Source: a plasmid
NCBI RefSeq assembly: GCF_058153355.1
Contig: NZ_JBLWLY010000002.1
DNA: 64,000 nt
Reading direction: 5' to 3' (one strand)
Shown here: piece by piece, positions 51,193 through 51,907 of the stretch
Layout of the letters: every line of letters starts with the position of its first letter
Position numbering within the stretch: position 1 is the stretch's first letter
Program-made: the position numbers and the translations under genes
Notes under the pieces: model-generated
Database searches by the model: none
What the model was told of the DNA's origin: nothing
Seen by the model: the letters and a program-made list of their open reading frames with translations, nothing else

Positions 51193-51200
51193 TGAACAGG

Positions 51201-51599
51201 TCAGCTCCAGTCTTCAGTTCTCAGGCCGCCCACACGTTCAAATTCCCGGGTGTTATTAGTCACAATAATCAGCCCCCGACTGCGGGCATGACCTGCGATC
51301 ATTTGATCAAATGGCCCGACAGGGCGTCCCTGACGGGCAAGTTCTGCTCTTATCTGGCCGGTGTGTGTGGCTGCAGCAGCGTCGTAATCCAGAACATCAA
51401 TGCGGGAAACAAATCCCTCGATCACAGCGAGATTACGTTCAGGCATCTGGCTTTTTTCTGCACCATATATCAGCTCCATCAGGGTGACCGAACTGATACA
51501 CATTCTCCTCTGGTTCAGGTTAAAACGCTCCCTGACGCTGGCGGGTTTGTTCTTTATCGTAAAAATGCAGATGTTGGTATCGAGCATAAACTTCAGCAT
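51201..51599 (-). CDS. vapC: VapC/MvpT PIN-domain toxin
   Basis: 132 aa; N-terminal MLKFMLDTNICI. Confidence 0.85.
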   Translation of the reverse strand: MLKFMLDTNICIFTIKNKPASVRERFNLNQRRMCISSVTLMELIYGAEKSQMPERNLAVIEGFVSRIDVLDYDAAAATHTGQIRAELARQGRPVGPFDQMIAGHARSRGLIIVTNNTREFERVGGLRTEDWS

Positions 51600-51826
51600 C
51601 AGAATGACTCCCTTTCCTGCATGCCGGGCTGTTCCCTGTTATCCATAAAATCGGCGCTGACGCTGTGTCCGTCGAACCATTCGTCCCATGTCTCTCCGGC
51701 TGGCGTAATGATTCTGGTTCGTCCGACAGCAATCACTTCAACGCGTTTTACGTTTTCCGGCAATGCAACCGCTTTTGGCAGTCTGACCGCCTGGCTGCGG
51801 TTGCTGAGAAATACGGTGGTTTCCAT
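51599..51826 (-). CDS. vapB: VapB/MvpA antitoxin
   Basis: 75 aa; 1-nt overlap with vapC. Confidence 0.85.
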   Translation of the reverse strand: METTVFLSNRSQAVRLPKAVALPENVKRVEVIAVGRTRIITPAGETWDEWFDGHSVSADFMDNREQPGMQERESF

Positions 51827-51907
51827 TATTTGCCTCCTTATGTGGATATGTCTTGTGTATATCCATTGTGGGATTGATACCGGGATATGTCAAAGGGATA
51901 TACGTTT

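Follow-up and report, generated by a model that had tools for sequence, protein, structure and literature searches.

A vapBC toxin-antitoxin module of probable F-like ancestry in the traD/traI overlap of a pINV-like plasmid, and a candidate relay frame antisense to it

Organisation of the traD-traI interval

We analysed 64,000 nucleotides of a plasmid (NCBI RefSeq assembly GCF_058153355.1, contig NZ_JBLWLY010000002.1; hereafter the window) at the place where the end of traD and the start of traI are held apart. The ORF list and the sequence confirm what had been read from the letters alone, namely a traD stop at 51192, a traI start at 51908 and a gap of 715 bp between them. The features of the interval and its flanks are as follows (window positions).

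48399-50473, minus strand: IS21-family element, with istB at 48399-49199 and istA at 49196-50368 (Pfam IstB_IS21, E 1.2e-90; rve and Mu-transposase C domains)
50474-51192, plus strand: traD remnant, the C-terminal ~239 codons, 95.4% identical to the 3' part of F traD (Pfam TrwB_AAD_bind, C-terminal end only)
51190-51192, plus strand: stop codon TGA of the traD reading frame (ORF list and sequence)
51192-51911, plus strand: 'trbH' ORF of 239 codons, antisense to vapBC (ORF list)
51193-51908: 716-bp indel relative to plasmids with an empty site (junction comparison)
51201-51599, minus strand: vapC (mvpT), intact, 132 aa, PIN-domain tRNA(fMet) endonuclease toxin (Pfam PIN, E 1.5e-20)
51599-51826, minus strand: vapB (mvpA), intact, 75 aa, AbrB/MazE-type antitoxin (Pfam and NCBIfam)
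51827-51907, minus strand: vapBC promoter/operator, 81 bp (promoter scan and repeat search)
51908-57056, plus strand: traI pseudogene, in three consecutive ORFs (blastn against F traI)

An opposite-strand VapB/VapC pair had been proposed to fill most of the gap, and it does: vapBC accounts for 626 of the 715 bp between 51193 and 51907 (88%), with matches in Pfam, NCBIfam and the PDB. The two genes are co-oriented and the vapB stop and vapC start share an ATGA at 51599; apart from vapB, vapC and the antisense frame, the ORF list of the window contains no reading frame in the gap. The traI start at 51908 reads ATGATG and opens a product beginning MMSIAQVRSAGS..., in which Pfam recognises the TrwC relaxase domain (E 2.4e-78) and TraI-specific domains.

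VapB is identical at 75 of 75 residues to the antitoxin of the S. sonnei structure 6SD6 (chain A), while VapC shares 131 of its 132 residues with the 6SD6 toxin and 130 with the S. flexneri toxin in 3TND. The alignments to 6SD6, 3TND and 9H6A are full-length, with E-values of 1e-82 to 1e-84. The family models agree with this assignment, VapC scoring 287 bits against NCBIfam NF010285 (tRNA(fMet)-specific VapC; cut-off 143) and VapB 111.7 bits against NF040493 (VapB; cut-off 60), and VapB also reaches 24.8 bits against Pfam MazE_antitoxin (cut-off 24.7). All four acidic residues listed as active-site acids of VapC, D7, E42, D98 and E119 (bioRxiv 10.1101/2020.08.10.243006), are present in the full-length alignment to 6SD6 and 3TND. 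A chance pair of ORFs is ruled out by this near-identity to the crystallised S. sonnei VapBC, and we conclude that the gap holds the enteric type II toxin-antitoxin module VapBC (MvpAT), including a promoter of its own. We found no evidence against this core assignment.

The nearest cassette, that of S. dysenteriae 96-3162, is one base away: position 51509 has T for C in the window, which changes VapC residue 31 from G to R. G31R is absent from the S. flexneri, S. sonnei, S. dysenteriae 96-3162, F and pSLT alleles compared. The substitution adjoins residue 32, at which the window carries the S. sonnei-type R and at which plasmid-loss rates are known to vary with a K/R polymorphism, R32 lowering post-segregational killing relative to K32 (bioRxiv 10.1101/2020.08.10.243006). 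G31R may bear on the potency of VapC in this plasmid.

Upstream of vapB a promoter scan places a minus-strand −35 hexamer TTGACA (51893-51888) and −10 hexamer CACAAT (51870-51865), which together agree with the consensus at 10 of their 12 positions, and a repeat search finds GGATAT/ATATCC half-sites around both hexamers (51844-51849, 51859-51864, 51883-51888 and 51896-51901). Homologues in unrelated contexts keep these motifs upstream of their vapB genes. The same 81-bp spacer also supplies a purine-rich AAGGGA (51893-51898) just upstream of the traI ATG. The chromosomal vapBC of Salmonella LT2 (STM3033/3034; 6IFC/6IFM), on which conditional cooperativity was worked out, belongs to the same family and has the same two-operator promoter layout, but is more distant in sequence (E 2e-69 versus 1e-84) and differs in its chromosomal context. 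In Salmonella vapBC, two operators overlapping the −10 and the −35 have been footprinted (Winther & Gerdes 2012, PMC3378870), and the predicted operators of the window fit this arrangement.

The surroundings of the module are decayed. The label of traD remnant given in the sequence-only reading is correct, as homology to F traD begins only at 50474, adjoining the IS21-family istA and istB genes; we placed the right end of the element at this position, and it removed the 5' two-thirds of traD. Aligned to F, traI has a 106-bp deletion near 53797-53805 (where alignment blocks overlap by 9 bp) and a 16-bp deletion at 56439, both of which shift the frame. The transfer system is dead, with the toxin-antitoxin module as the only intact unit in the traD-traI stretch. 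In PLSDB a 24-kb piece of the window is covered to 53% at most by any one record; the best matches are S. dysenteriae pINV records, piecewise only and amid many IS elements and ipaH genes. The window is part of a rearranged, IS-rich pINV-like plasmid closest to the S. dysenteriae pINVs.

Two further features of the window may be recorded here. A second ORF of istA size (390 aa) at 19466-20638, in the region 18151-20638, suggests another copy of an IS21-family element (the copy truncating traD has an istA of 390 aa and an istB of 266 aa), and two such copies could mediate deletions or inversions between them. Just to the left of the truncating element, at 47594-48177 on the minus strand, lies a second toxin-antitoxin-like pair. 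Its 94-aa antitoxin is of the ribbon-helix-helix (CopG) type; the overlapping downstream 99-aa ORF, with the N-terminus MELKWTSKALSDL..., looks ParE/RelE-like by eye, has no Pfam match and is probably a frameshifted toxin.

Distribution of the cassette and its role in plasmid maintenance

The sequence-only reading had taken traD and traI to be adjacent in canonical F-like transfer regions and the toxin-antitoxin pair to be a cassette inserted between them. The adjacency is borne out by R100-type plasmids and by ~3000 PLSDB records with an uninterrupted traD-traI junction, but does not hold for F itself (NC_002483), which has vapC-vapB between traD and traI. In R100- and R1-type regions the traD 3' end and traI are as in the window; the cassette is absent and the traD stop overlaps the traI start (TGATG). 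Klebsiella, Enterobacter, Citrobacter and Serratia add five distant F-like plasmids with this overlapping junction. Insertion likewise stands in so far as the cassette is a discrete 716-bp indel relative to the R100-type overlap. It is not, however, an event in this plasmid, the window junctions being base-for-base identical to those of F.

We searched PLSDB with a 2-kb query running from the end of traD through the cassette into the start of traI (coverage of at least 80%), and at least 971 records span all three. Any homologue of the cassette is present in 1296 plasmid records, in 1179 of which it is at least 80% identical, nearly all of these at the traD-traI site. The site is occupied in pSLT, where the original annotation has a plus-strand trbH together with PSLT106/107, in pCFSAN012622, in pWR501 and in the pINVs of S. 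dysenteriae, S. boydii and S. sonnei. Several of these loci have been described before: the VapBC of plasmid F has been crystallised (PMC11796401) and vapBC2 of pSLT is said to be 'encoded within the trbH gene' (PMC5065971).

Compared with the VapBC/MvpAT of Shigella pINVs (pWR100, pMYSH6000 and S. sonnei 53G; 3TND, 6SD6), the window has the locus, flanks, catalytic residues, ATGA overlap and promoter/operator in common. It differs in the G31R substitution and in the IS21-family element within traD, whereas in pWR501 an IS600 lies near the remnant. With F vapBC (9H6A-D) the window shares the junctions, the 8-bp left and 81-bp right spacers and the 239-codon trbH frame; F differs in having intact traD and traI, in ~3% nucleotide divergence and in four VapC residues and one VapB residue. 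The pSLT vapBC2 (PSLT106/107, inside the annotated trbH, PSLT105), for which a stabilising role is reported, has the same site, orientation and junction logic, but only ~87% nucleotide identity and a right spacer of 78 bp. In the original record pSLT VapB (PSLT107) has an extra N-terminal Met codon, and RefSeq starts the same sequence in pSPCV and Milwaukee at the second ATG.

R100-type plasmids, in which no gap separates traD and traI, would agree with a new insertion particular to the plasmid studied here. Against such an event stand the same cassette with the same junctions in F, pSLT, pWR501, other pINVs and the PLSDB records counted above, and the one-base distance from the S. dysenteriae 96-3162 cassette, so that we regard it as wholly improbable. 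What the sequence-only reading had itself named as evidence against insertion, the same cassette at this position in other F-like plasmids, is thus what we find, and the arrangement is therefore inherited from an F-like ancestor and was not inserted in this plasmid. To the overall reading, of a vapBC module lying antisense in the traD/traI overlap as it does in F, pSLT and all Shigella invasion plasmids and inherited from an F-like ancestor, we assign a probability of about 0.85.

From published work on these proteins, the VapC of the window would be expected to cleave initiator tRNA-fMet, and VapB to neutralise VapC and to be degraded by Lon. The VapBC hetero-octamer would repress its own promoter through the two operators overlapping the −10 and −35, and cells that lose the plasmid, or delete the vapBC segment, would be arrested or killed. 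Cleavage of the tRNA, Lon-dependent turnover of VapB and post-segregational killing are known for the S. flexneri, S. sonnei and F alleles (PMC5629016, PMC11796401, bioRxiv 10.1101/2020.08.10.243006). In pINV maintenance, vapBC, which lies near the pINV origin in all Shigella species, has been given both a global role, through post-segregational killing, and a local one termed 'post-recombinational killing' (PMC5629016). An intact vapBC amid dead tra genes fits these published roles, and we propose that the module survives intact in a decayed tra region because its loss would arrest or kill the cell.

Borders of the cassette and polarity of gain and loss

Junctions were compared by alignment (F, pCFSAN012622 and pSLT) and by direct print-out. 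The 716-bp indel sits exactly in the stop-start overlap of traD and traI: plasmids with an empty site and an F-type traI start (L005-L007) read TTCTGA followed directly by TGATGAGTATC, and the window and F read TTC TGA, then the 716 bp, then TGATGAGTATC. The search for short border repeats had a partial yield, a 3-bp TGA that bounds the indel and lies within an imperfect 10-bp direct repeat (TTTCTGATGA / TTTATGATGA). The repeat search found no IS-like ends or terminal inverted repeats at the borders of the window cassette, the ORF list contains no transposase, integrase or recombinase gene within it, and an Rfam scan of 50300-52500 (E of 1 or less) for RNA or structured elements gave one sub-threshold snoRNA match, which we regard as noise. 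The window cassette therefore shows no transposase or integrase of its own, terminal inverted repeats or attC-like site that would mark a transposable element or an integron-type mobile cassette. Since homology to vapBC modules elsewhere ends a few bases past the vapC stop and just beyond the distal operator, the unit comprises promoter, vapB and vapC, ~0.71 kb in all.

Among 80 vapBC loci recovered in a scan of one genome per species, two have the order traD-vapCB-traI, one in an Enterobacter MAG and one in Pantoea gossypiicola, and in PLSDB the site is likewise occupied in an F-like plasmid of Edwardsiella, by a cassette of 73% identity. In pRHB35-C14_2, a distant F-like plasmid of E. coli, a vapBC of 77% identity (3995-4620) follows a DUF2726 gene and is placed antisense, upstream of traD and not between traD and traI. 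In Pantoea an 18-bp stretch of the traD 3' end stands on both sides of the insert, the copies being identical at 16 of 18 positions (GGGAGGGTACATTTGATG / GGGAGGATACATCTGATG, at about 3466-3486 and 4218-4238 on the reverse complement of locus L016), and the right copy equals the empty site of E. roggenkampii and C. freundii plasmids. This duplication is an insertion signature, and precise loss could also proceed through it. An 8-bp left spacer is shared by the F, pSLT, Pantoea and Enterobacter-MAG lineages, and the 81-bp right spacer of F corresponds to the 117 bp of Pantoea minus 36 bp; together these spacers point to a single old event.

Cassettes of Kosakonia and [Erwinia] mediterraneensis have, to the left of vapC, ~30 nt resembling the traD 3' end followed by TGATG and an 8-nt spacer. 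Neither traD nor traI is detectable near them, and they look like leftovers of decayed transfer regions.

How the two states of the junction arose can be read in two ways. We think it probable that adjacency of traD and traI is ancestral and that the cassette is an old insertion, repeatedly lost or exchanged thereafter. The last point rests on a tree of TraI relaxase domains, in which each clade examined mixes occupied with empty plasmids (the degenerate S. flexneri pWR501 traI entry, with 7 stops, was ignored). Alternatively, the cassette may be ancestral to the whole F/pSLT/Pantoea/Edwardsiella branch or older, the empty junctions having arisen by precise loss or by recombinational replacement, so that R100, RCS22, pEM03 and the E. 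roggenkampii and C. freundii plasmids would all be secondarily empty. The divergences of VapC and TraI do scale together (76% and 72% for Edwardsiella, 84% and 81% for Pantoea), the left spacer is identical across the four lineages, and excision between the Pantoea repeats would precisely regenerate the observed empty site. Loss of an addiction module should be counter-selected, however, and the overlapping junction is the common state in all F-like groups sampled. A deletion between the present F-type repeats would moreover yield TGATGA and not the observed TGATGATGA, and the 18-bp target duplication is itself a sign of insertion. An ancestral cassette is for these reasons doubtful, though it keeps some weight beside the old insertion that we prefer.

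The trbH frame

The plus-strand ORF antisense to vapBC is joined to both of its neighbours: its ATG shares the A with the traD stop (TGATG) and its TGA overlaps the ATGATG of traI. Both overlaps, start on stop and stop on start, are kept in pSLT, Edwardsiella, the Enterobacter MAG and Pantoea despite differing spacers. The inserts measure 715 nt in F and the pINVs, 715 in pSLT, 814 in Edwardsiella, 751 in the Enterobacter MAG and 751 in Pantoea, all of them 1 mod 3. The extra spacers of Edwardsiella (77 and 111 bp) and Pantoea (117 bp) are in frame, free of stops and end on the traI start; the Pantoea ORF closes with the duplicated TraD C-terminus, GGYI.

In all five lineages with the cassette between traD and traI (F/pINV, pSLT, Edwardsiella, Enterobacter MAG and Pantoea) the trbH frame has no stop, whereas in ~80 vapBC homologues elsewhere the corresponding antisense frame has 1-14 stops in all but one, a Pseudomonas locus of 64% GC. 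Fisher p-values were 1.7e-7 and 0.002, with independence overstated since the five lineages share ancestry. When codons were resampled with the VapB and VapC proteins held fixed (E. coli codon usage, from an approximate table), 2.7-3.7 stops were expected per cassette and the chance of an open frame was 0.017-0.055. Permuting synonymous codons within each gene gave P 0.4-1.0 and does not serve as a null for the open frame, because the genes already lack TTA, CTA and TCA, which is the signal itself.

Third-codon-position identity between four deep lineages is 0.41-0.53, and synonymous sites therefore appear close to saturation. The antisense-frame peptide is only 39-53% identical between lineages, compared with 73-94% for VapC, so that, as far as these sequences tell, it is the open frame that is conserved and not a protein sequence. 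Scans of the trbH peptide in its window and Edwardsiella versions gave no match in Pfam or NCBIfam.

We suggest, on this evidence and with about even confidence for and against, that 'trbH' is not a protein gene but a selected relay frame, kept free of stops to let translation pass from traD over the antisense cassette to traI. Where a plasmid's tra operon works, ribosomes finishing traD would restart on the overlapping trbH ATG, read through 715-814 nt antisense to the toxin-antitoxin genes and terminate on the traI start. Such a relay would preserve the translational coupling of traD and traI and guard traI from Rho-dependent polarity, and the frame would decay in plasmids whose tra operon has died or whose cassette lies at another site. 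Cassettes outside a working traD-traI context do carry stops in this frame: the pRHB35-C14_2 copy upstream of traD has 2, two further E. coli cassettes (L011 and L012) have 2 and 4, and the Kosakonia and Erwinia copies, with their scrap of traD 3' end and neither traD nor traI, have 3 and 1. In pSPCV of Salmonella Paratyphi C, a 55-kb virulence plasmid of non-F-transfer type without an annotated traI, an A where the Milwaukee and pSLT alleles have G gives rise to a TGA at 3092-3094 that cuts the frame to 200 codons, and the VapB of pSPCV has the same protein accession as Milwaukee VapB. Shigella pINVs with dead tra genes keep the frame open, which is expected if decay is recent and is not positive support for a relay. 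In the window the frame is a relic.

That TrbH is instead a genuine protein, selection on which keeps the frame open, would agree with the length and position of the ORF, conserved in five lineages, and with its naming as a tra-region gene in F and pSLT. The low identity of its peptide, whose substitutions follow the vapBC frames, speaks against this, as does the failure of Pfam and NCBIfam to recognise it. Most F-like plasmids moreover lack the ORF, and all of these conjugate (trbH is reported in only 8% of MOBF12 plasmids; PMC5102898), and the literature describes its function, and that of an antisense 'trbH' transcript in Shigella, as unknown. We hold a TrbH protein to be very unlikely. An open frame owed to chance and shared ancestry, without selection, is easier to entertain, as a single insertion may be the source of all occupied lineages, stops are most easily avoided in the codon-aligned antisense frame, and the unrelated Pseudomonas control is open too. 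Yet near-saturated synonymous sites, the number of stops expected under resampling and the in-frame, stop-free extra spacers ending on the traI start all argue against it, as do the stops in close relatives outside a working traD-traI context (1-4 per frame), including the pSPCV change that leaves VapB identical to that of Milwaukee. Chance is to our minds an unlikely explanation, if less so than a TrbH protein.

A relay frame, which we favour over both, cannot be strictly essential, since F trbH insertion mutants, described by Maneewannakul and Ippen-Ihler in 1993, reportedly still transfer, and F traI is reported to have some TraJ-independent expression. We did not find the relay idea stated in the searchable literature; the locus itself is already known, and this idea alone may be new.

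As the main stabiliser of the Shigella virulence plasmid, present at the same place in F and pSLT, VapBC/MvpAT is a textbook locus. Its presence here would explain why an island of 0.7 kb stays intact between two dead tra genes, as its deletion is expected to kill the cell. If the relay reading is true, it would give a function to an ORF that has been unexplained since the F tra region was sequenced, and trbH would clearly exemplify how a host operon can adapt its reading frame so as to tolerate a selfish antisense insertion.
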